From contig JACIWB010000001.1 of NCBI GenBank assembly GCA_014361245.1, forward strand, positions 4,622 through 68,621: DNA of 64,000 nt, in the 5' to 3' direction. Shown here in pieces: positions 1,064 to 25,290 of this stretch. The stretch comes from Thermoplasmatales archaeon (GTDB lineage Archaea; Thermoplasmatota; E2; UBA202; JdFR-43). How positions within the stretch are numbered: position 1 is the stretch's first letter; every line of letters starts with the position of its first letter. A program made the translations under genes and the position numbers. The notes under the pieces were generated by a model. That model did not search any database. It was not told the origin of the DNA and worked only from the letters and a program-made list of their open reading frames with translations.

Positions 1064-1498
1064 AATCTGGAGGTGTTAGGTTGATAGTCCCTTTAAATTA
1101 ATCCGAATTGGCAGATATGAAAGAATTGCAAGAAATTTATTCTTTAACTATATTGCTATGAAGGAAATTTGTGTTATTGCGAATTGATATAACTTTCCAT
1201 AGAAAGCATATATTGCTCTCTTCATTTCATATTCTATTCCACAATAATTCTAATATCCTGCTTTTTTGAAATTTGGGCTCGAAGAGCTACAAAGCATATG
1301 GAAATTCTCCTGAAAATAGCATTCTCTCTTAGAATAATTTCATGCTTAAGAAGTGGAGAATAGCAAAAATTTCGATAAGATTTAATACTTATTCTCCATT
1401 TTAAATTCTCTAATTTAAAATAAATTTTTCCACTTGAAATGCAAAAATAGAAAAGTTTTTAAATAAAATAGATATTATTGTCTGACAAATGACGGACA

Positions 1499-1759
1499 AT
1501 GTCATACAAAGTCCGCCATTTAGGGGAGAAAATGGAAACAGAAAAAGTCACAGTAAGGCTGCCAAAATCTCAGATTGCGTTGATAGATACTCTAATTACT
1601 TTAGGTGAAGTTAGTTCAAGAAGTGAAGCAATAAAGAGAGCAATAAATCTTTTCCTAAGAGATATAAGCAAGGATGTTGAAGAAAGAAAGAAGATGTGGG
1701 AAAGTCTCAGGGATTTGCAAATATTGGCGGAAGAGGTGAGAAAATATGAGAAAAAATAA
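1499..1759 (+). CDS. Ribbon-helix-helix (CopG/RHH-like) DNA-binding protein
   Basis: KVTVRLPKSQIALIDTLITLGEVSSRSEAIKRAINLFL fits the beta-strand plus two helices RHH pattern; C-terminal coiled-coil tail. Same strand as ftsZ and 50 nt upstream of it. Confidence 0.5.
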   Translation: MSYKVRHLGEKMETEKVTVRLPKSQIALIDTLITLGEVSSRSEAIKRAINLFLRDISKDVEERKKMWESLRDLQILAEEVRKYEKK

Positions 1760-1760
1760 A

Positions 1761-1811
1761 GGAGGGGATGGGTTGCAACCAGCCTATATAAATAAAAAGG
1801 AGGGGATGTAA
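1761..1811 (+). other. SD-like GGAGGGGATG (x2) with mini-ORF MGCNQPI* (1768..1791) between the RHH gene and ftsZ; shares a ~30-nt motif with 24108..24140
   Basis: Seen directly: ggaggggatgggttgcaaccagcctat at 1761-1787. GGAGGGGATG occurs again at 1799-1808, followed by atg-taa-ATG(ftsZ). Confidence 0.4.
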
Positions 1812-2882
1812 ATGAAAAGCTTGATAGAAGATGCATTGAGGTTTGAAAGCGAAAAAAAAGAGATAGATAATGGGTTCGGAATACCCAAAATAGTGGTTAT
1901 AGGGGTAGGGGGAGCTGGCGGAAACACGATTAATAGATTACATAGGATAGGGATAAAGGGAGCGGAAATAGTAGCAATATATACAGATAAACAAGCGCTT
2001 GATGTAGTTGAAGCAGACAAAAAACTTGTCATAGGAAGAAACACAACCCGTGGCTTGGGAGCGGGTGGCTATCCAGATGTAGCAAGAAGAGCGGCAGAGG
2101 AAAGCAAAGATGAAATTGCCCAGATAATAGGCGAGCCAGACCTAGTTTTCATAACAGCGGGCATGGGCGGCGGCACTGGCACTGGCGCAAGCCCTTTGAT
2201 AGCGAAGATTGCAAAAAGAAATGGGGCGATTGTCGTTGGCATGGTATCTATTCCATTCAAGGTTGAGAGGGGAAGGATAGTCAGGGCTGAACAGGGACTG
2301 GAGGAACTGAGAAAGGAGTGCGATTCAGTGATAGTGCTTGATAACCAGAAATTGCTTGAATTTGTTCCTCATTTGCCCATAGATAAGGCATTTGGAGTAA
2401 TGGACCAGCTGATATCTGAGACAGTCAAGGGAATATCTGAAACCATAACACAGCCATCTCTGATAAACCTTGACTATGCGGATGTAAAAACAATCGTAAG
2501 CGGTGGGGATGTTGCGGCAATGTTCTGGGGAGAAGGGACAATAAGAGATGGTCCAGAAGCACTTGCACATGAAGCACTTCATCATCCATTGCTTGAAGTG
2601 GAAACTGCTGGAGCAAGGGGTTGCCTGATTCACATAACAGGAGGGCAGGATATGAGCCTTGAATTTGCAGAAAAGATAGCAGAATATATGACGAATGAAA
2701 TAGATCCATATGCGAATGTTATAATTGGTGCAAGAGTAAATACCGATTACAATGGAAGATGCAGGGTAATGGCAATAATGACAGGAGTAACTTCTCCATA
2801 CATTCTTTCTCCAAAAACAGACGAAGTAAGACTTGCAAGATGGGATAGCGGAAAAAGATTGGGCGTTGATATAATAGCCTAG
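1812..2882 (+). CDS. ftsZ: Cell division GTPase FtsZ
   Basis: [10 protein letters not shown] (GTP-binding N-terminus) and the tubulin/FtsZ signature GMGGGTGTG; 356 aa. Confidence 0.9.
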
Positions 2883-4096
2883 TCTCCCTCTATCTCTATT
2901 TTCTCCCCGTTTACTGGGGTATATGTTTTATTATCTATTTCCTCTGCTATCAATTCTGGTTTTTCTGAATGAAAAATAACAACATTTTCTGGATTGCAAT
3001 CATTTATAAATTTAACAAGCTGGCTGTGGCTGGCGTGGGCTGAAAAATCGTAAAACTTTACCTGGCAATTCACCTTTCTAACAACCCCATAGAGGTCTAT
3101 TTCTTTATTATCAAGCAATCTTCTTCCATTTGTCCCTTCCACCTGGTAGCCGGTTATGAAAACAGCGGATTTTGGGTCATCCTTTATTTTATCTATATAC
3201 CAAAGCACAGGCCCACCATTCATCATTCCACTTGTTGTAATAACAATTCCCGCCTTTAGTGCCAATTTTTTTCCTTTATTTGAATAAACAAAATTGATTT
3301 TTTCAATTGCTTTCCTTAATTTTTGAGGAGATCTTATATATCTTCCATTATCCAGAAATATTTCAGATATCTGATAGCCCATCCCGTCCATCCATATCTC
3401 ATGCTCTTTATCCATAAGAACCATTGCAACTTCCTGCGTTCTCCCAACTGCAAATGCTGGAATTATTGCCTTTCCCCCTCTGTTTATTACATCCTCCACA
3501 TCATCAATAAATTTCTTTTCTAACTCCTTTCTATCAGGATGCTCCACACCTGCATATGTGCCTTCAATGAAAAGATTTCTGCATTTAACTGGCTTAACTC
3601 CATGAAGCAATTTTGTATCTATTGTATTTATATCACATGCAAAAAGAGTATCATTTATTTTTATCATTGTTGAGCCAGGTATATGGCCGGCGGGATATAA
3701 ATTTATTTCAATTTCATCATATATATCAATCTTATTTTCTACATCAAAAAAATTTTGATTTGCTATTTCAATATCATTTGCATCGTAAGGAAAAGGATAA
3801 CCGCTTGCATCCGCTATTTTTAATGTATCATAAAAAAGAATTTGAGAGAGTTCTCTTGTTAGTTTTGTGGAAAAAACCTTTGTATTATGTCTTCTACATA
3901 TCCACGGTATCATGCCAGAATGGTCGAGATGGGCATGAGATAGAATAACATATTTTGTAGGAGGGGATTCAATCGGGTAAATAGGAGGATTTTGAGGGGA
4001 GATGCCGTAGTCAATCAAAATTTTTTTATTTTCTATCTCTAAAAATATTCCAACTCTTCCTACTTCCCTACCTCCTCCCAAAAATGTGGCAATCAT
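2879..4096 (-). CDS. Metallo-beta-lactamase/beta-CASP family RNA-processing nuclease (archaeal CPSF/aCPSF2-like)
   Basis: HAHLDHSG (MBL motif HxHxDH) near the N-terminus; 405 aa; glycine-rich start MIATFLGGGREVG typical of beta-CASP RNases. Confidence 0.7.
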   Translation of the reverse strand: MIATFLGGGREVGRVGIFLEIENKKILIDYGISPQNPPIYPIESPPTKYVILSHAHLDHSGMIPWICRRHNTKVFSTKLTRELSQILFYDTLKIADASGYPFPYDANDIEIANQNFFDVENKIDIYDEIEINLYPAGHIPGSTMIKINDTLFACDINTIDTKLLHGVKPVKCRNLFIEGTYAGVEHPDRKELEKKFIDDVEDVINRGGKAIIPAFAVGRTQEVAMVLMDKEHEIWMDGMGYQISEIFLDNGRYIRSPQKLRKAIEKINFVYSNKGKKLALKAGIVITTSGMMNGGPVLWYIDKIKDDPKSAVFITGYQVEGTNGRRLLDNKEIDLYGVVRKVNCQVKFYDFSAHASHSQLVKFINDCNPENVVIFHSEKPELIAEEIDNKTYTPVNGEKIEIEGD

Positions 4097-4621: not shown

Positions 4622-5443
4622 TTATTGTTGCTGTGCAATCAATATGCCAGTTATTGCCACAAACCCAGCAAAAATAGTCAAAATTTTTATTTTTTCATCC
4701 AAGATAAGTCCTGAAAATATAACTGAAAAAAGAGGCATCATATAAGTAAAGAATGATAATTTAGAAACTTCGATTTTTTCCATGGCAGAATACCACAGAA
4801 TGTAGGCAAGTATGGTTGTAATTATTGCAAGGAAAAGCGAAATAGCAACACCTTCATAATCAATTTCTATTTTCTCCAGAAGCAGGCAGGGAGCAAGAAA
4901 AATTGTTCCAGAAAATGATGAAAAGGACAGGATATGAATCGCTTTGTATCCATTATTCAACAAATTTTTTGCAATTATTCCTCCTGCAGAATAACTTATT
5001 GCGGAAAATAATACAAGAAGATTGCCAAGCAGGCCGCCCCCTCCCTGCGGGGAGACAACAAAATAGGTGGCAGAGAGAGCAATTATTAAGCCCGCTATTT
5101 TCTGTTTTGTTATTTTTTCTTTAAGCAAAAGATAGGCTAAAATAAGAGTATATAATGGGCCTGTGCTCTGAATAAAGCCAGATATGTATGCATGGGTATA
5201 TTTTAGCCCGATGTTTTGGAGAACTGTTGGAAAAGTAACGCTGAACAATCCCAAAATTATAAAATCCTTTATTTTTATATTAAAAGGAAAAAGAAAGGGG
5301 ATTAAAATTAAACCTGCAATTCCATATCTTAGAAAAGCGAGCATTATTGGCGAAATGCTATTAAGAGCAATTTTTGTTATTGGGAATGATGCTCCCCAGA
5401 TTAAAGATGAAATTGTTGCATATAATGGTATTTTTTTGTCCAT
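4622..5443 (-). CDS. EamA/DMT-family (drug/metabolite) transporter
   Basis: 273 aa, about 10 TM helices, duplicated EamA-type halves with GxxxG-rich segments. Confidence 0.7.
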   Translation of the reverse strand: MDKKIPLYATISSLIWGASFPITKIALNSISPIMLAFLRYGIAGLILIPFLFPFNIKIKDFIILGLFSVTFPTVLQNIGLKYTHAYISGFIQSTGPLYTLILAYLLLKEKITKQKIAGLIIALSATYFVVSPQGGGGLLGNLLVLFSAISYSAGGIIAKNLLNNGYKAIHILSFSSFSGTIFLAPCLLLEKIEIDYEGVAISLFLAIITTILAYILWYSAMEKIEVSKLSFFTYMMPLFSVIFSGLILDEKIKILTIFAGFVAITGILIAQQQ

Positions 5444-19568: not shown

Positions 19569-21497
19569 TTATTTCTTCTTTTTTCTTATTAAAAAAATAA
19601 GGAATGAAAATAGTAAAATAAGGAAGGAGAAGGATGGTGTTTCATTTCTTCTTTCTATTTCCTTTTCAGTTGAAAATGAAAGAGAAAAATCATCATTTAA
19701 ATTCAATCCTCTTAAATCTTTAGCATTTTTTGATATATTTACAAAATATTTTTTTCCTTTCTCAAAATCAATTTTCAAAATTAATTTATCTTCATTCCAT
19801 TCAAAAACAGTTTCAGCAGGGGGATAAATAAATAAATTTTCCTCTACAGAACTTTTATTCATTTTACTTGAGAATTTTATTTCAATTCTTTCATTTATTG
19901 ATATATTTTCCTCTCCATCAAAAATATTTGTAGATAATATCGATGGATTTGTTATTGAAAAAGAAAAGAAAAAATTATCTTTTAATGGATTTCCATTTTT
20001 ATCTTCCATATAATCTGTTACTGTGACATTATATTTCCCCGCAGAGTAATATTTTGGATAAATTAAAAGCAATGAATCATTTTCTTCCCATTCATAACTA
20101 AAACTGATGAATGGCTTTATTTTTATTGCATTATGAAGAATAGGATACATTGGCTCCGAGAATTTAATTTTTATAAATTCATATAACTCGCTATTAAATG
20201 GCTCGGCATAGCTCACTTCCGGAGGAATGTTATCTGGAGAGGATGTAAAAAATGAAAAATAAAATTCTTCCATTTTTTGCCCGCTGATGCGGGATGCATT
20301 ACTTATTTTTATAGTATAAAGAGTATTATATTCCATATAAGGCTCCAAAATCAATTCTTTTTCATTCTTCCATTCCAGGAAATAGCTTGCATTTGGAGAT
20401 ATTTCTATTTCAATGCTTTTATTCATCTCATGGGAGAATTTTATTATAATAGAAGCATGCACCGGAACATTCTCGGATTTATTTTCGGGATAATGATAAA
20501 CAACTTTTGGGGAAGAGGTATCTACTATAAACTTATATGATATTTCACTTATCTGCCCGATGCTATCTTTTGCTCTTAAAAAAAATTCATATTCTCCATC
20601 ACTTAAGTTATAATCTGCTTTTCTGTTTTTATCCCAGTTGCTCCATTCTTCATTGCTCATCCTGTATGAATAAAGAATTTCACCCTCATCTTCTCCACTC
20701 CATTCAAAGGTTACATTCCCATAGCCCTCAACATCTCTTGGTTTCCTTGTAAAATATATATATGGCGGGGCATCTTCCGCCGGCGGGCTCGCAATGCATG
20801 CATCCACAAAATTTGCCAAAAAGGCATGCGTATCAGATGGAGGGTCTGAATATCTCATTTCCGATTGATTTCTGAAAACGACTGCTATTGCCATTACATT
20901 TTCCTTGTTTGTTGCTTCATTAAAGACTGCATCTATTCTCATTTTTTCATTTTTTTCAATATTTATTTCTCTTTTTATTGCATATCCGAGCAGTGCAAAA
21001 TGAAATGGATTTCCTCTCGCATCCTTCCATCTCGAAGTTGGTTCAACAACATAAACTTTTAAGTAGCCACTATAATTTTTACTTTCTCTATTCTCTATTT
21101 CAACTGATATGTTAAGCCCTTCATTTCTCCATATAACCCTCATTGAAAGATTTATGTTTGCTCTGCTCCTTGCAAGAGAACTTTCAATCGCTTTTATATA
21201 ATCCGATTTACTTTTCTTTCCAAATAAAACTTCATATCCACCATCAAAAAAAGCCGTTGGATAACCATACACATTGTATTCATTAACTCTTTCATTTGCA
21301 TCGCTGCTTTTATCAGCAACAAGAGAAACAAAATAGAATGGATATTGATGCGAGCTATAAATTTCATAAATAATTTCGCTCACATCAGGGCAGGCGGTGC
21401 ATGTTGTAGTTGTTGCTTCCTCACAAAATACATTTGCATTTGCCTTCAAAACGAAAAATAATAGTATGAAAGATAGGATTGCAAGATATTTTTTCAT
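19569..21497 (-). CDS. Large secreted surface protein: thioredoxin-fold CxxC module + Ig-like domains + C-terminal TM/KKKK anchor (PGF-CTERM-like variant)
   Basis: Signal peptide; CTAC...YPFYFVSLVADKSS...YNVYGYPTAFFDGG, paralogous to the Trx-like module of 22580..23995; C-terminus ETPSFSFLILLFSFLIFLIRKKKK. Confidence 0.55.
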   Translation of the reverse strand: MKKYLAILSFILLFFVLKANANVFCEEATTTTCTACPDVSEIIYEIYSSHQYPFYFVSLVADKSSDANERVNEYNVYGYPTAFFDGGYEVLFGKKSKSDYIKAIESSLARSRANINLSMRVIWRNEGLNISVEIENRESKNYSGYLKVYVVEPTSRWKDARGNPFHFALLGYAIKREINIEKNEKMRIDAVFNEATNKENVMAIAVVFRNQSEMRYSDPPSDTHAFLANFVDACIASPPAEDAPPYIYFTRKPRDVEGYGNVTFEWSGEDEGEILYSYRMSNEEWSNWDKNRKADYNLSDGEYEFFLRAKDSIGQISEISYKFIVDTSSPKVVYHYPENKSENVPVHASIIIKFSHEMNKSIEIEISPNASYFLEWKNEKELILEPYMEYNTLYTIKISNASRISGQKMEEFYFSFFTSSPDNIPPEVSYAEPFNSELYEFIKIKFSEPMYPILHNAIKIKPFISFSYEWEENDSLLLIYPKYYSAGKYNVTVTDYMEDKNGNPLKDNFFFSFSITNPSILSTNIFDGEENISINERIEIKFSSKMNKSSVEENLFIYPPAETVFEWNEDKLILKIDFEKGKKYFVNISKNAKDLRGLNLNDDFSLSFSTEKEIERRNETPSFSFLILLFSFLIFLIRKKKK

Positions 21498-21507
21498 GTT
21501 AATGAAT

Positions 21508-21894
21508 TTATTTATGCATTTTAATTTTTGCCATTATTAAAAGAGCCACTGATATTAAAATAATTTCAAACCCTGGTGTTTTTTTGCTGTTCACCTTTAT
21601 TATATCTTCCTTAATAACATTATTATCAACGATTATTGCAATTTCGAAATTCCCTTCATTTGTTGCATTGAATTTCGCAACCCATTTGCCATTTTCATAT
21701 TTCATCTGCTCATAAAAGCAAGCATCTTCATTAGGACAATATTTAAGCTTTACCACACTTGCACTTGTTACATTTTCTATTTCAGCATATACTGTTACAA
21801 CATCCCCAACTTTTGGCTGAGAGGGCTCCCAAGTAACATTTACAGCTCCGGCAAAAGAAGAAAAAAGGATGAGGAAAAGAATCACTGCTTTCAT
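21508..21894 (-). CDS. Small secreted protein with PGF-CTERM archaeal sorting signal
   Basis: Signal peptide; C-terminus KKTPGFEIILISVALLIMAKIKMHK (PGF + TM + basic tail); N-glycosylation sequons. Confidence 0.6.
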   Translation of the reverse strand: MKAVILFLILFSSFAGAVNVTWEPSQPKVGDVVTVYAEIENVTSASVVKLKYCPNEDACFYEQMKYENGKWVAKFNATNEGNFEIAIIVDNNVIKEDIIKVNSKKTPGFEIILISVALLIMAKIKMHK

Positions 21895-22583
21895 ATCTTC
21901 ACCTTGTATATCATTATCTCGTCTCTATATTCATCCCACGCAGAAGTATATCCCTTCACAATTATCTGCGTAAATTTCTCATCTAAAACCTCACTGTTAT
22001 TGTAGTCCTCGTTCCACTTCCACTCAAACGGCGGCTCGCTGTCGCTGTGCATCACTTTCAGCCCGCACCCGCAAGCCATAGGCAGCAGGAAATCAACAAC
22101 TTTTATATCGGATGTTGCATAGACCTCAACATTTATATCTCCAATTACAATCTGCCCCAATATTGGAAATACTTTTATTCCAAAAACATAAATTCCATTT
22201 CTTGGCTTTGTTATCCTGCAGGATGAAAGAGTATGGGGCATACTAACCTGCAATGTTGCTGGCTCACTTTTTGCTCCATGCTCATCTGTTGCTGTAACAG
22301 TAACTACATAAGTTCCCTTTTCCTGCCATGTATGTTTTGCCTCTACCTGCTGGCCAGAATTTACATATGGAGTGCAGAATTCATTTCCATCTCCCCACTT
22401 AAAACAGTAAAATATTTTGTCTCCATCTGGGTCATTTGCAACAGCAGTAAAAGTATATTCCTTTCCCGCTTCACCGCTTGATGGTCCATTTATTGTTGGC
22501 TTCTCTGGTGGATTGTTTGCAATTGCCAGTGCCGAAAAAACAAGCATTCCTACTATAAATATTGTCAGTTTCTTCATATTCAT
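21891..22583 (-). CDS. Secreted PKD-domain protein (short paralog of 22580..23995)
   Basis: First 108 aa nearly identical to the next gene: FTAVANDPDGDKIFYCFKWGDGN...HTWQEKGTYVVTVTATDEHG (PKD signature). C-terminal Ig-like domain related to the C-terminus of the long paralog. The middle Trx module is absent. Confidence 0.6.
   Translation of the reverse strand: MNMKKLTIFIVGMLVFSALAIANNPPEKPTINGPSSGEAGKEYTFTAVANDPDGDKIFYCFKWGDGNEFCTPYVNSGQQVEAKHTWQEKGTYVVTVTATDEHGAKSEPATLQVSMPHTLSSCRITKPRNGIYVFGIKVFPILGQIVIGDINVEVYATSDIKVVDFLLPMACGCGLKVMHSDSEPPFEWKWNEDYNNSEVLDEKFTQIIVKGYTSAWDEYRDEIMIYKVKI
22236..22579. repeat. Copy A of a ~344-bp near-identical direct repeat (5' end of PKD genes)
   Basis: Aligned by eye to 23645..23988 with only 3 mismatches. 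Confidence 0.85.
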
Positions 22584-23995
22584 ATATTTATCACATATAG
22601 ATAGATCTGCTCTTCCGCATAGTTTCCATTCACATCATATGCTCCTATGATAAGAGTATGGCTTCCAAAGGTTCCGTCATATAGGCACTCATATGGTGGC
22701 TCATTGTCATCAAGCAATGTTTCCCCACAAACTGTGAAAACAACATTTTTAACTCCTGAATCATCTGTAACATTTGCCTTCAATGTTATTTTTCCAAAAA
22801 CTATTGCGGTTTCTATGGGCAATGATAATATTTCCCTGTCAAATAGATACAGGCATCCTTTCTTTGGCTTTTCAACAATTATGTTCGGTGGGGTTACATC
22901 ACCCATTTCAAGATTTTCTATTGTAACATTTATTTTTAAAATAGCACCACACTCGCATCCGGTTAGCCAGTCAACTTTAAGATTTAGGTTTAAGTCATGC
23001 ACATCTTGTCCCATGCAATAATTTATTGCATTTTCATATGTTGCTTCATTGCTTGTTCCTCCAACAAGCACCTTTCTTCCACCGTCAAAGAATGCAGTTG
23101 GATAACCGTATAAATTATAATCATTTTTTAATCTATTATAAGCTATACTATTCACATCCCCTATCATGGAAACATAGTAGAAAGGATATACATTCTTATC
23201 AAAAATGCTCTTCAGCGCCCCTCCCATTGCGGGACAATATGGACAATATGTAGCGGTTGCCACTTCTATAAATACTGTATGAGTTGTACCCTCTTTAGAA
23301 TTGCTTCCTTCCTCGCCAGGCCTTGCGGCGGCGCAGGCATCAACATAATATGCATTGAAAGGATTCCTGCTTGGTGGGTATGCGTAACCTTTATGGGGCG
23401 AGGGGTTGAAAAGAGCGGCTATCACCATTATGTTGTCTTCACTCACATCTGGATAATTAGATTGAGAGGGGACCCAATCGACTTCTATATTTGCTTTCTC
23501 CATATAGGGAACATTTACATTTTCGTCATAAGCAAATTCAAGAAAACCAAAGTTGTAAGGATTTTTATTGTAGTCATTCCATCTTGATATTGGCTCTAAA
23601 ATATATATTCTTAATCTTCCACTATATCCAATGCTCTGGCTTAAGGGCATACTAACCTGCAATGTTGCTGGCTCACTTTTTGCTCCATGCTCATCTGTTG
23701 CTGTAACAGTAACTACATAAGTTCCCTTTTCCTGCCATGTATGTTTTGCCTCTACCTGCTGGCCAGAATTTACATATTGAGTGCAGAATTCATTTCCATC
23801 TCCCCAGTCAAAACAGTAAAATATTTTGTCTCCATCTGGGTCATTTGCAACAGCAGTAAAAGTATATTCCTTTCCCGCTTCACCGCTTGATGGTCCATTT
23901 ATTGTTGGCTTCTCTGGTGGATTGTTTGCAATTGCCAGTGCCGAAAAAACAAGCATTCCTACTATAAATATTGTCAGTTTCTTCATGTTTATCAC
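22580..23995 (-). CDS. Secreted PKD-domain + thioredoxin-fold (CPYC) + Ig-like domain surface protein
   Basis: PKD N-terminus; TATYCPYCPAMGGAL...YPFYYVSMIGD...YNLYGYPTAFFDGG (Trx/Grx-like CPYC active site and cis-Pro loop); 471 aa. Confidence 0.6.
   Translation of the reverse strand: MINMKKLTIFIVGMLVFSALAIANNPPEKPTINGPSSGEAGKEYTFTAVANDPDGDKIFYCFDWGDGNEFCTQYVNSGQQVEAKHTWQEKGTYVVTVTATDEHGAKSEPATLQVSMPLSQSIGYSGRLRIYILEPISRWNDYNKNPYNFGFLEFAYDENVNVPYMEKANIEVDWVPSQSNYPDVSEDNIMVIAALFNPSPHKGYAYPPSRNPFNAYYVDACAAARPGEEGSNSKEGTTHTVFIEVATATYCPYCPAMGGALKSIFDKNVYPFYYVSMIGDVNSIAYNRLKNDYNLYGYPTAFFDGGRKVLVGGTSNEATYENAINYCMGQDVHDLNLNLKVDWLTGCECGAILKINVTIENLEMGDVTPPNIIVEKPKKGCLYLFDREILSLPIETAIVFGKITLKANVTDDSGVKNVVFTVCGETLLDDNEPPYECLYDGTFGSHTLIIGAYDVNGNYAEEQIYLYVINI
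23645..23988. repeat. Copy B of the ~344-bp near-identical direct repeat
   Basis: See copy A; mismatches at 3 positions (CFKWG/TPYV vs CFDWG/TQYV in the protein). Confidence 0.85.
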
Positions 23996-24066
23996 CAGTG
24001 GTAAATAATTATTTATATTAAAATTTTGCTCATCATGTAATCATCTGTTTTCAAATAAATAGATAT

Positions 24067-25290
24067 ATGGAAGGACAGGCAAAAAAAGCATCTTTTGGGA
24101 GGGGATGGGATGCCTTTGCAACCAGCCTATCCTTCCAAAATTATAGAAAAAAACAATATATATTAATTTCGTTTTTTTATATTCCATGGCAATTGGTAGC
24201 ATTTGTCATTAATGCAAACTTTTTTAATCGATTTTATATAGCACATATGGAAAATGAGGAAATAAAGCTTCCGGAATTTGATGAAAAAAAATTCAAGGAA
24301 AAGGAAAAGAAAAAAGCAAAGATATATTTTATATCTTTTATTTTTGGATTAATAATGGCAATTCTATGTTCTTTCTTCTGGGTAAATTTGCCATCAAACA
24401 TTAGATGGCTTCTCTGCTTCCTGCTCGCAATTTCTTCAATTGGCTTTCTTGCAAAATTTTTCCAAATATTTAAACTGGATATCAAAAATTTCAGCAAAAA
24501 AGATTGGATTGCTTCAATATTTTATTATTTTATAACATGGTTAGCATTTTTTATACTTTTTATAAATCCACCATTCCATGATGTTTCCCCTCCAAAGATA
24601 GAGGTTGTTGCACTCCCAGAAATTCAGCAGGAAAATGGAACAATAAATCTTTTTGCTCTTATAACAGATAATTCATATGTTAGCAATGTTGTAATAAATA
24701 TATCTGGAAATGAATATGAAATTAAAAAAGATAATAACTCTGTTTATTCCTATAATCTAACCTATCCCGTAAGCGATTATTTCATTGTTGCAAAGGATAA
24801 AAACAATAATGAAGCAAAATATGAAGGAAAAGTCACATATAAAAACAATTTAATAAAGATAGAAAGCGATGAAGTTTTAAATTCCTCATCAGAGATTGAA
24901 ATAAAGGTTTATAAAAACATAAGCAAAAAAGGTTTTAGAGTATTTTATAGAATTGGAGAATATGAGGTAAATGCAACAAAATCAGGAGAGACAGGGGATT
25001 ATTTAATCTATTCAACATCCCCACAATACATTGGATGGAAAAAAAATTCATTAAATGAAATCGAAATATTTGTTGAGGTAATTCACTATTTCCCTGGTAT
25101 AAAAGATGCATATTCAAATAAAATATATGGAGGAAAATATTATTTCCAAACCACCGATGATGCCAATATAGGAGTGCTTGAATCGCCCGTCCCGAAAGAT
25201 TTGCCCCAACCCGAGCCGCTCCGCACGCCTGGCTTCGAACTCGTTTTGCTGATACTTGCAATAGCTTTATTTTTGAGAAAGAAGAAATGA
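24067..25290 (+). CDS. Membrane/surface protein with PGF-CTERM sorting signal (true start may be internal, M at 24247)
   Basis: C-terminus LRTPGFELVLLILAIALFLRKKK; 3-4 N-terminal TM helices then a beta-rich extracellular region with many NxS/T sequons. The 5' 180 nt contain the shared mini-ORF motif (24108..24156). Confidence 0.5.
   Translation: MEGQAKKASFGRGWDAFATSLSFQNYRKKQYILISFFYIPWQLVAFVINANFFNRFYIAHMENEEIKLPEFDEKKFKEKEKKKAKIYFISFIFGLIMAILCSFFWVNLPSNIRWLLCFLLAISSIGFLAKFFQIFKLDIKNFSKKDWIASIFYYFITWLAFFILFINPPFHDVSPPKIEVVALPEIQQENGTINLFALITDNSYVSNVVINISGNEYEIKKDNNSVYSYNLTYPVSDYFIVAKDKNNNEAKYEGKVTYKNNLIKIESDEVLNSSSEIEIKVYKNISKKGFRVFYRIGEYEVNATKSGETGDYLIYSTSPQYIGWKKNSLNEIEIFVEVIHYFPGIKDAYSNKIYGGKYYFQTTDDANIGVLESPVPKDLPQPEPLRTPGFELVLLILAIALFLRKKK
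24108..24156 (+). other. Second copy of the GGAGGGGATGGG...TTGCAACCAGCCTAT motif with mini-ORF MGCLCNQPILPKL* (24115..24156)
   Basis: Seen directly; differs from the ftsZ-upstream copy by a 6-nt insertion (atgcct). Confidence 0.4.

Follow-up and report, generated by a model that had tools for sequence, protein, structure and literature searches.

We analyzed a 64,000-nt stretch of the genome of a Thermoplasmatales archaeon (contig JACIWB010000001.1; hereafter the window), in which a short two-box sequence element lies in the spacer between a gene for a ribbon-helix-helix (RHH) protein and ftsZ (site A) and recurs about 22 kb away, next to a surface-protein gene (site B). The upstream half of the element, Box 1, resembles a ribosome-binding site (RBS), and the downstream half, Box 2, is C-rich; coordinates are collected in Table 1. 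At site A the spacer is 52 nt long. The RHH protein finds as its top NCBIfam match the 'transcriptional regulator CdrS' (NF058555, E 3.9e-09), an equivalog model built from haloarchaeal sequences, but its 36.4 bits miss the curated cutoff of 100 bits, and we refer to it as CdrS-like. Converging on ftsZ from the other side, with a 4-nt overlap of the gene ends, is a minus-strand gene for a beta-CASP ribonuclease of 405 aa (2879-4096).

Just ahead of ftsZ, its Shine-Dalgarno (SD) region (1799-1808) is identical to the first 10 nt of Box 1, and every orthologue likewise has an SD here. A prior inspection of the letters alone (the sequence-only reading) had pointed to this second GGAGGGGATG and to an ATG-TAA-ATG run, and both are found as described, at 1799-1808 and 1806-1814. 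The ATG within the second GGAGGGGATG belongs to the extended SD and is not a start codon; we assign the sequence to the ftsZ SD because internal genes of the window use SDs of the GGAGGTGA type and genes that lead a transcription unit are leaderless.

The pattern GGAGGGGATGGG-N(0-12)-TTGCAACCAGCCTAT matches the window exactly twice, at 1761-1787 and 24098-24130 and both times on the + strand, and matched none of 100 dinucleotide-preserving shuffles, which bears out the earlier judgement that so near-identical a repeat is unlikely to arise by chance. (The second copy had been placed at 24108-24140, 10 nt too high.) Site B consists of the same two halves as site A, separated by six extra bases, ATGCCT. 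The 6-nt length difference was thus correctly noticed, but its reading as an insertion at site B is reversed by two related loci (L015/L016), whose own RHH-ftsZ spacer carries the 33-mer GGAGGGGATGGGATGCCTTTGCAACCAGCCTAT, identical to site B of the window. Because these relatives have the 33-mer at their own ftsZ site, the long form is ancestral and site A of the window has lost six bases, probably by slippage between two TGC repeats.

Orthologous spacers were collected through homologues of the RHH protein (loci L004-L016), a pattern scan of metagenomes (L017, L019) and homologues of FtsZ (L032-L048); all of these relatives are Thermoplasmatota metagenome-assembled genomes or metagenome contigs, from hot-spring and hydrothermal samples. 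Synteny of the RHH, ftsZ and beta-CASP genes is common to all of them, and in nearly all it continues into ArsR (PF09824) and EamA genes, other genes being found there in the L040-L047 loci. Every locus fetched (the window, L004, L005-L014, L015/L016, L017, L019, L032-L036, L037, L038/L039, L040-L047 and L048) has the element, placed after the RHH stop codon and ahead of the ftsZ SD, in spacers of 40-58 nt, and this conservation reaches down to 72-78% FtsZ identity. Absence from relatives had been named beforehand as what would speak against the motif; its retention in the RHH-ftsZ spacer of every relative fetched argues that the element is functional. When the 11 distinct copies are aligned, they read GGGGATGGG, in most cases with ATGC after it, and A(C/T)CAGCC, in most cases with TAT after it, set 5-11 nt apart with variable sequence between. 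The Box 1 core GGGGATGGG is invariant or nearly so, and the fully invariant columns are G.G.TGGG and C.A.CAGCC.

More distant FtsZ homologues, at 57-63% identity, give indirect evidence. Their gene calls carry N-terminal extensions (MGCTP..., MHPL..., ..GGDGMHPL.., ..RRGWDA..) ending in ..NYQ.. or ..TTTN.. ahead of the real start. Back-translation gives Box 1, with each of the three frames represented, then a middle lengthened to 60-75 nt, and a Box 2 that reads ACTACCAG together with an SD. Such back-translated calls suggest a wide distribution of the element within the phylum. Public FtsZ calls that start inside the element, with extensions of 10-30 aa, are P0059-P0061, P0069, P0073, P0081, P0105, P0108, P0113, P0120, P0125, P0128, P0134, P0136, P0139, P0149, P0153, P0154, P0159, P0160, P0168 and P0175. 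The extensions (MGC..., MHPL..., ..RGWDA..) are probably annotation artefacts, and such spurious N-termini should be trimmed from public Thermoplasmatota FtsZ calls.

Both mini-ORFs (short open reading frames) of the sequence-only reading translate as it had given them, MGCNQPI at 1768-1788 with its stop at 1789-1791, and MGCLCNQPILPKL* at 24105-24146. Across lineages, Box 2 falls in all three reading frames (NQPI, QPAY or PPA, or TSL), which places the constraint on the nucleotides and not on a peptide. A frameshift affects the MGC frame in the L005 group; in L017, L032, L038 and L048 this frame is truly open and fused in frame to ftsZ, elsewhere it is stopped, and no frame yields a peptide conserved across lineages (MGCNQPI, MGMQPAY.., MGITTTSL.., MPLPPAKGG, MHYQPIGRG). 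What is conserved is an architecture, in which an SD-like run with an ATG stands 3-11 nt past the RHH stop and opens a short ORF, whatever its sequence, across Box 2; nearly all lineages have GGAGG in the run, with ATG or TTG behind it. The earlier proposal of a conserved upstream ORF (uORF) or leader peptide therefore holds for the SD-like sequence and the ATG or ATGs right after the RHH stop, and fails for the peptide, given the L005 frameshift and the three frames over Box 2.

Table 1. Features of the site A and site B loci in the window
Feature	Coordinates	Strand	Description
CdrS-like RHH gene, 75 aa	1532-1759	+	Pfam RHH_1, E 6e-07; directly upstream of ftsZ
Site A Box 1	1761-1772	+	GGAGGGGATGGG; RBS-like; holds ATG 1768-1770; begins 2 nt past the RHH stop codon
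Site A variable spacer	1773-1777	+	TTGCA, shortened from the ancestral ATGCCTTTGCA
Site A Box 2	1778-1787	+	ACCAGCCTAT; sole C-rich segment of the RHH-ftsZ spacer; CAGCC invariant in 11/11 copies
TATA-like octamer	1784-1791	+	CTATATAA; -28 to -21 from the ftsZ ATG
ftsZ ribosome-binding site	1799-1811	+	GGAGGGGATG, then TAA; 8-nt spacing to ATG 1812
ftsZ, 356 aa	1812-2882	+	Pfam Tubulin and FtsZ_C; TIGR00065 375.8 bits, above cutoff
TATA-like element of the site B block	24055-24066	+	Predicted transcription start about 24088-24089
Conserved non-coding block	24063-24178	+	Only in the window subclade (window, L001, L022, L024/L025)
Predicted RNA hairpin, 21 bp, irregular	24093-24140	+	Upper part is Box 1:Box 2; flanks specific to site B, UUUUGGGAGG and CCUUCCAAAA, extend the lower part
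Site B full 33-mer	24098-24130	+	Exact match; Box 1 24098-24109, spacer 24110-24120, Box 2 24121-24130
Promoter-like element of the surface-protein gene	24213-24228	+	Found with the promoter matrix
Surface/membrane protein gene, 347 aa	24247-25290	+	Transmembrane region, Ig-like domains, C-terminal PGF-type anchor; weak Pfam matches EMC6_arch and Big_7

The two boxes are partly complementary to each other, and Box 2 is partly complementary to the ftsZ SD. For site A, RNAalifold predicted a single consensus helix (H1) in which Box 1 GG(A)UGG pairs with Box 2 CCA(G)CC (GGAUGG:CCAGCC) with an additional G.U pair, the variable spacer forming the loop. The ftsZ SD is an alternative potential partner for Box 2 in all lineages represented by DNA (H2; CCU:AGG and CC:GG flanking a tandem AG/AG), with a loop of 3-14 nt. 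In the window, UUGCA:UGUAA adds to this helix, which is there the minimum free energy (MFE) structure, at -9.6 kcal/mol. In the predicted ensembles, the SD is the main partner of Box 2 for the window, L005, L015, L032 and L048, and Box 1 is its main partner for L017, L037 and L038. Sequestration of the SD exceeds that of shuffled sequences in the window (12/300), L005 (4/300), L015 (19/300) and L040 (11/300).

We propose that the element acts in cis as an RNA leader of ftsZ, on a joint transcript of the CdrS-like RHH gene and ftsZ. Box 1 (GGAGGGGAUGGG in the RNA, with one or two AUGs) would mimic a ribosome-binding site 0-12 nt past the stop codon of the regulator, and Box 2 (ACCAGCCU) would be an imperfect anti-Shine-Dalgarno that pairs either with Box 1, forming hairpin H1 with the spacer as its loop, or with the downstream ftsZ SD, forming hairpin H2. 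Whichever pairing wins would set the accessibility of the ftsZ ribosome-binding site. The balance might in turn be set by ribosomes that end on the regulator gene, by ribosomes that initiate at Box 1 and cross Box 2, or by a bound factor, and the outcome would be FtsZ synthesis tuned relative to the regulator. To an RNA-level leader of some kind we assign a probability of roughly 0.6. The particular version in which an RBS mimic, Box 1, and an imperfect anti-SD, Box 2, compete with the true ftsZ SD is put forward tentatively, at somewhat less than even odds. What the comparisons show is conservation, position, independence of reading frame, potential complementarity and a small number of copies; the action at the level of RNA, the H1/H2 switch and the site B transcript are inferred.

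Co-transcription of the RHH gene and ftsZ, which this proposal presupposes, is suggested by analogy with Halobacteria, where the cdrS-ftsZ2 pair is co-transcribed and is reported to be conserved across Euryarchaeota (Darnell et al. 2020, PMC7439475; Liao et al. 2021, PMC8406309). Here as there, ftsZ is immediately preceded on its own strand by the gene for a small RHH regulator. In Haloferax, however, the two ORFs are 3 nt apart, whereas the Thermoplasmatota loci have a spacer of 40-58 nt with the two-box element and a separate strong SD, and the RHH protein of the window is below the CdrS equivalog cutoff. Post-transcriptional control has been hinted at near the 5' end of haloarchaeal ftsZ2 (PMC8303175), and none of these cdrS-ftsZ2 papers (PMC7439475, PMC8406309, PMC8303175) describes a spacer element of this kind.

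Several results weigh against the proposal. No pair covaries, all six consensus pairs of the RNAalifold alignment being invariant or changed on one side only, so that the alignment lends the site A structure no comparative support and in itself speaks neither for it nor against it. The folding z-scores of site A are unremarkable (-0.8 and -0.4), and the hairpins are predicted to be marginal at 55-70 C (-1 to -5 kcal/mol), when the relatives come from hot-spring and hydrothermal samples. In L017, L037 and L038 the SD is sequestered no better than in shuffles. H2 would be impossible in the distant lineages with the long middle, because Box 2 abuts the SD there (CCAGGAGG, as read from the protein extensions). 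Finally, a switch between H1 and H2 fails to explain the conservation of site B, since no SD-led gene lies downstream of it and the adjacent gene looks leaderless.

Other RNA devices were considered and rejected. Inspection found none of the GA/GA boxes, C and D boxes, ACA position or four G-tracts that a kink-turn (an L7Ae site), a C/D or H/ACA small RNA, or a G-quadruplex would require. A bipartite pairing with the 16S rRNA 3' end, in which GGAGGgGAU and CCAGCC together complement ...GGCUGGAUCACCUCC, is attractive but weakened by the distant lineages with the long middle, which seem to have CCAGCA or CCAGGA, and also by the position of GGCU inside helix 45. In those same lineages the back-translated extensions allow central hairpins with stems of 9-19 bp, for example GAAGGGUGC-AAGU-GCACCCUUC in P0113; this comparison is underpowered, with 6-272 of 300 shuffles as good.

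Among the closest known parallels are attenuators and RBS-sequestering leaders. Leaders of the ermC and cat type work by translational attenuation, and in phage MS2 translation is coupled by unmasking a downstream RBS. As in those systems, a first SD with a short ORF is followed here by a segment that can pair either upstream or with the SD of the regulated gene; unlike them, the element has no conserved stalling peptide, no covariation and only short helices, marginal at high temperature, and its host is archaeal. How archaeal FtsZ levels are set is poorly understood, and the best-studied module, cdrS-ftsZ2, is known only transcriptionally, in haloarchaea. An element between regulator and ftsZ that is conserved without encoding a peptide, and that joins an RBS-like feature to its complement, would offer a handle on post-transcriptional control of archaeal division, and the single extra copy in a conserved non-coding block beside surface-protein genes hints at a possible second player.

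This second copy had been taken to lie in the 5' region of the membrane-protein gene. Site B is instead intergenic, 117-150 nt upstream of that gene, whose real start is ATG 24247 (MENEEIKL). The ORF 24067-25290 is over-extended, because the orthologues show indels and changes off the codon pattern upstream, and because distant homologues start at the equivalent of ATG 24247. A coding extension through 24067-24246 was accordingly rejected (1-nt indels, changes off the codon pattern, starts of distant homologues at the MENEE equivalent); the public gene calls P0004 (365 aa) and P0005 (415 aa) likewise extend the gene upstream through site B. The protein family has 52 homologues in Thermoplasmata. 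Those at 53-59% identity have just 36-44 nt of intergenic DNA upstream and lack the conserved block around site B, yet a promoter-like CTTTTTAAA..TTTTAnATAGCA right before ATG 24247 is kept even in relatives without the block.

Where the block is present, it is strikingly constrained. Between the window and L024, its first ~105 nt are 98% identical, against 77% for the adjacent coding sequence and 53% for 4-fold degenerate sites. The 33-mer is invariant in the four site B orthologues (window, L001, L022, L024/L025), whose 4-fold sites are 51-61% identical, and is the same 33-mer as at site A of L015, a locus of the genome that also holds L024. The synteny breakpoint of L001 coincides with the left edge of the block, conservation starting exactly at an AT-rich run before GGAAGG; upstream of it, L001 (3160-3260, compared with window 23996-24066) has a glutamate dehydrogenase gene (gdh) and not the gene for a PKD-domain protein.

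Weak signals suggest that the block may be a small transcription unit of ~90 nt on the + strand, ahead of the gene's own promoter. A scan for sigma-70 promoters and terminators is not applicable to archaea and was replaced by a matrix trained on the leaderless genes of the window itself, which discriminates weakly in AT-rich DNA. Its + strand matches are at 24055-24064 (start near 24089), 24152-24161 and 24213-24222 (start at the ATG of the gene), and a T7 run occupies 24172-24178. The predicted site B hairpin reaches an MFE of -19.7 kcal/mol at 37 C (z-score -1.7; 12/200 shuffles fold as well) and persists in prediction at 70 C, at -7.2 kcal/mol. In L001 both partners of one terminal pair are altered, a U being lost in the 5' arm and an A changed to U in the 3' arm. 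The hairpin contains G.U pairs and would therefore be specific to the + strand RNA.

In extending our proposal to site B, we suppose that the 33-mer was copied to a second locus in one subclade, where it would top a longer hairpin at the 5' end of an apparently separate ~90-nt transcript. This hairpin RNA (start near 24088, T7 run at 24172-24178) could act in trans as a mimic or decoy of the ftsZ leader, competing for whatever reads that leader, be it ribosomes or a regulatory protein. We regard this as quite unlikely; were it true, the decoy would be an RNA-based throttle on FtsZ synthesis that links cell division to a surface-protein gene cluster.

The alternative that we take most seriously, though it too is unlikely, is that the two boxes make up a sequence-specific site on the RNA to which a factor, a protein or another small RNA, binds in trans. 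As shared targets of this factor, the ftsZ leader and the site B transcript would form a small regulon or a pair of target and decoy, the hairpin being incidental or serving to present the boxes. Such a factor would account for boxes that are conserved in sequence and not by covariation, for a 33-mer kept identical at two unrelated loci that share no flank homology, and for the invariance of every base of the site B 33-mer when 4-fold sites are 51-61% identical; it explains site B better than the H1/H2 switch does. A variable spacer, far longer in the distant lineages, is likewise what two contacts joined by a dispensable linker would look like. Against this stand the lack of any candidate factor, the lack of a complementary sequence elsewhere in the window, and the absence of a kink-turn or other known protein-binding RNA motif, with nothing found in Rfam. 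In the L001/L007 genome, moreover, Box 1 has drifted at site A but not at site B, which places the two sites under unequal constraint.

Quite improbable, in our judgement, is a DNA operator, bound by the CdrS-like RHH protein or by another protein, that would govern both an internal promoter of ftsZ and the cluster of surface-protein genes. The RHH gene does adjoin the element, and in Haloferax the specific motif bound by CdrS lies 41-110 nt ahead of transcription starts, that of ftsZ1 among them (PMC8406309); site B lies ~117-150 nt upstream of two divergent surface-protein genes, and its distance to promoters is close to the -41 to -110 range of CdrS sites. In the window subclade Box 2 also abuts the TATA-like octamer CTATATAA (-28 to -21 from the ftsZ ATG), which could be an internal promoter for a leaderless ftsZ mRNA in that subclade only. 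The TATA box of unit-leading genes in the window ends near -21, as this octamer does, but the octamer is missing from L017, L032, L037, L038 and L048 and got no score from the promoter matrix.

The element has no symmetry, neither a dyad nor a regular direct repeat; its two boxes do not resemble one another, and the distance between them ranges from 5 to 11 nt, a variation of roughly half a helical turn. Box 2 lies just 2-5 nt from the SD in L032, L037, L038 and L048, which leaves no room for a promoter downstream of it, and the G.U pairs in the helices fit RNA and not duplex DNA. The motif found by chromatin immunoprecipitation sequencing for CdrS is described as having 'notable symmetry', and symmetric tandem repeats upstream of the RHH gene resemble operators of the RHH family (CopG, Arc, MetJ) far better than the asymmetric, variably spaced element. 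These are three tandem TGTCnGACA-like units at 1479, 1490 and 1500 (window 1477-1510; steps of 11 and 10 nt), with a promoter-like element on one side and the SD of the RHH gene on the other; L032, L038, L040 and L048 have similar repeats ahead of the orthologous gene. They are unlike the element and are not found near site B. The repeats (1479-1508) are a likely autoregulatory operator and a better candidate than the element, for which the earlier suggestion of an operator for the adjacent RHH protein is not supported.

That a translated micro-ORF is itself the functional unit, encoding a small conserved peptide or relaying ribosomes from the Box 1 ATG, seems to us very unlikely. In nearly all lineages the SD-like sequence is followed by a start codon 3-11 nt past the RHH stop; a second ATG or TTG sits at the ideal 7 nt from GGAGG, and the ORF from this second start stops in the ftsZ SD-ATG spacer in the window, L004, L005, L015, L032, L037 and L038. 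Most spacer indels are multiples of three (the ATGC-CAGCC gap is 9, 9, 6, 5 or 3 nt), and site B shows SD, ORF and T-run in mini-gene order. Yet no frame holds a conserved peptide, L040 is without a second start codon, the stop of the MPLQPAY.. ORF at site B is lost in L024, and the SD and ATGs of site B would be buried in the -19.7 kcal/mol hairpin. A relay uORF whose sequence does not matter would fit the RNA leader that we favour and is no rival to it.

In E. coli the small RNA DicF controls ftsZ translation by antisense pairing. Site B invites the comparison, as a second locus whose sequence matches the ftsZ ribosome-binding region and suggests control of FtsZ in trans, but the second copy has the same sense as the ftsZ leader, so that a + strand transcript would be a mimic or decoy and not an antisense RNA. 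A DicF-like antisense RNA that blocks the RBS region of the ftsZ leader would have to come from the minus strand of site B. This strand is complementary to site A over 33/33 nt in the L015/L024 genome and over 12 + 15 nt in the window; its T7 run (the complement of 24081-24087) could terminate a transcript, and an antisense RNA near the 5' end of ftsZ2 has been reported in Haloferax (PMC8303175). We nonetheless give the idea little credence: no minus-strand promoter-matrix match lies at a suitable distance, the nearest (24226-24217) meeting a T7 run (24153-24147) before the motif; the G.U pairs of the helix become C.A on the minus strand; and Box 1 of site A in the L001/L007 genome has diverged from site B without a matching change.

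Hardly credible at all is an element with no function of its own, the second copy being left over from a small duplication and its likeness persisting through chance or hitch-hiking: there are only two copies, and that at site B is confined to one narrow subclade, but the 33-mer is 100% kept in four site B orthologues and at site A of L015 with synonymous sites near saturation, the flanks have diverged beyond recognition, and site A is kept over a much wider range of lineages. A segmental duplication that includes the flanks of the two sites was rejected, homology beyond the 33-mer not being significant.

The ftsZ spacer and site B are also the only contexts in which the exact or relaxed pattern was found in the window, GTDB species representatives, JGI metagenomes and 307 kb of related DNA; other matches were GC-rich chance matches or phage coding sequence. 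With two genomic contexts in all of these, the earlier option of a footprint left by a small repeat element does not stand. Additional copies in viral contigs were likewise rejected, the scan giving phage coding sequences only. A known RNA or a tRNA fragment was rejected as well, with no tRNA gene in the window and no match in it at the Rfam 15 gathering score (the site B block has only chance-level matches, all with E > 1). Nor do the two sites look like the attachment sites of a 22-kb integrated element: site A occurs in genomes without site B, the intervening housekeeping genes are in conserved synteny, and there is no tRNA gene.

Some observations concern the surroundings of the two sites. 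About 25 unit-leading genes of the window (for example those at 5443, 16935, 35535, 39488 and 48942) share a promoter architecture in which an A-rich run like a B recognition element (BRE) precedes YTTTWAAWA, which ends ~21-25 nt before the ATG. With the BRE and TATA so close to the ATG, most first genes of transcription units would be leaderless, and internal genes have GGAGGTGA-type SDs. Site B lies inside a cluster of five surface-protein genes with PKD or Ig-like domains (19569-25290), and a hydrophobic C-terminal anchor of the PGF type followed by basic residues is found in three of the proteins (19569-21497, 21508-21894 and 24247-25290). The same cluster contains a direct repeat of 300 nt, 99% identical between 22236-22535 and 23645-23944, which encodes the signal peptide and PKD-domain N-termini of two adjacent secreted proteins on the minus strand (21891-22583 and 22580-23995) and points to a recent duplication or gene conversion.

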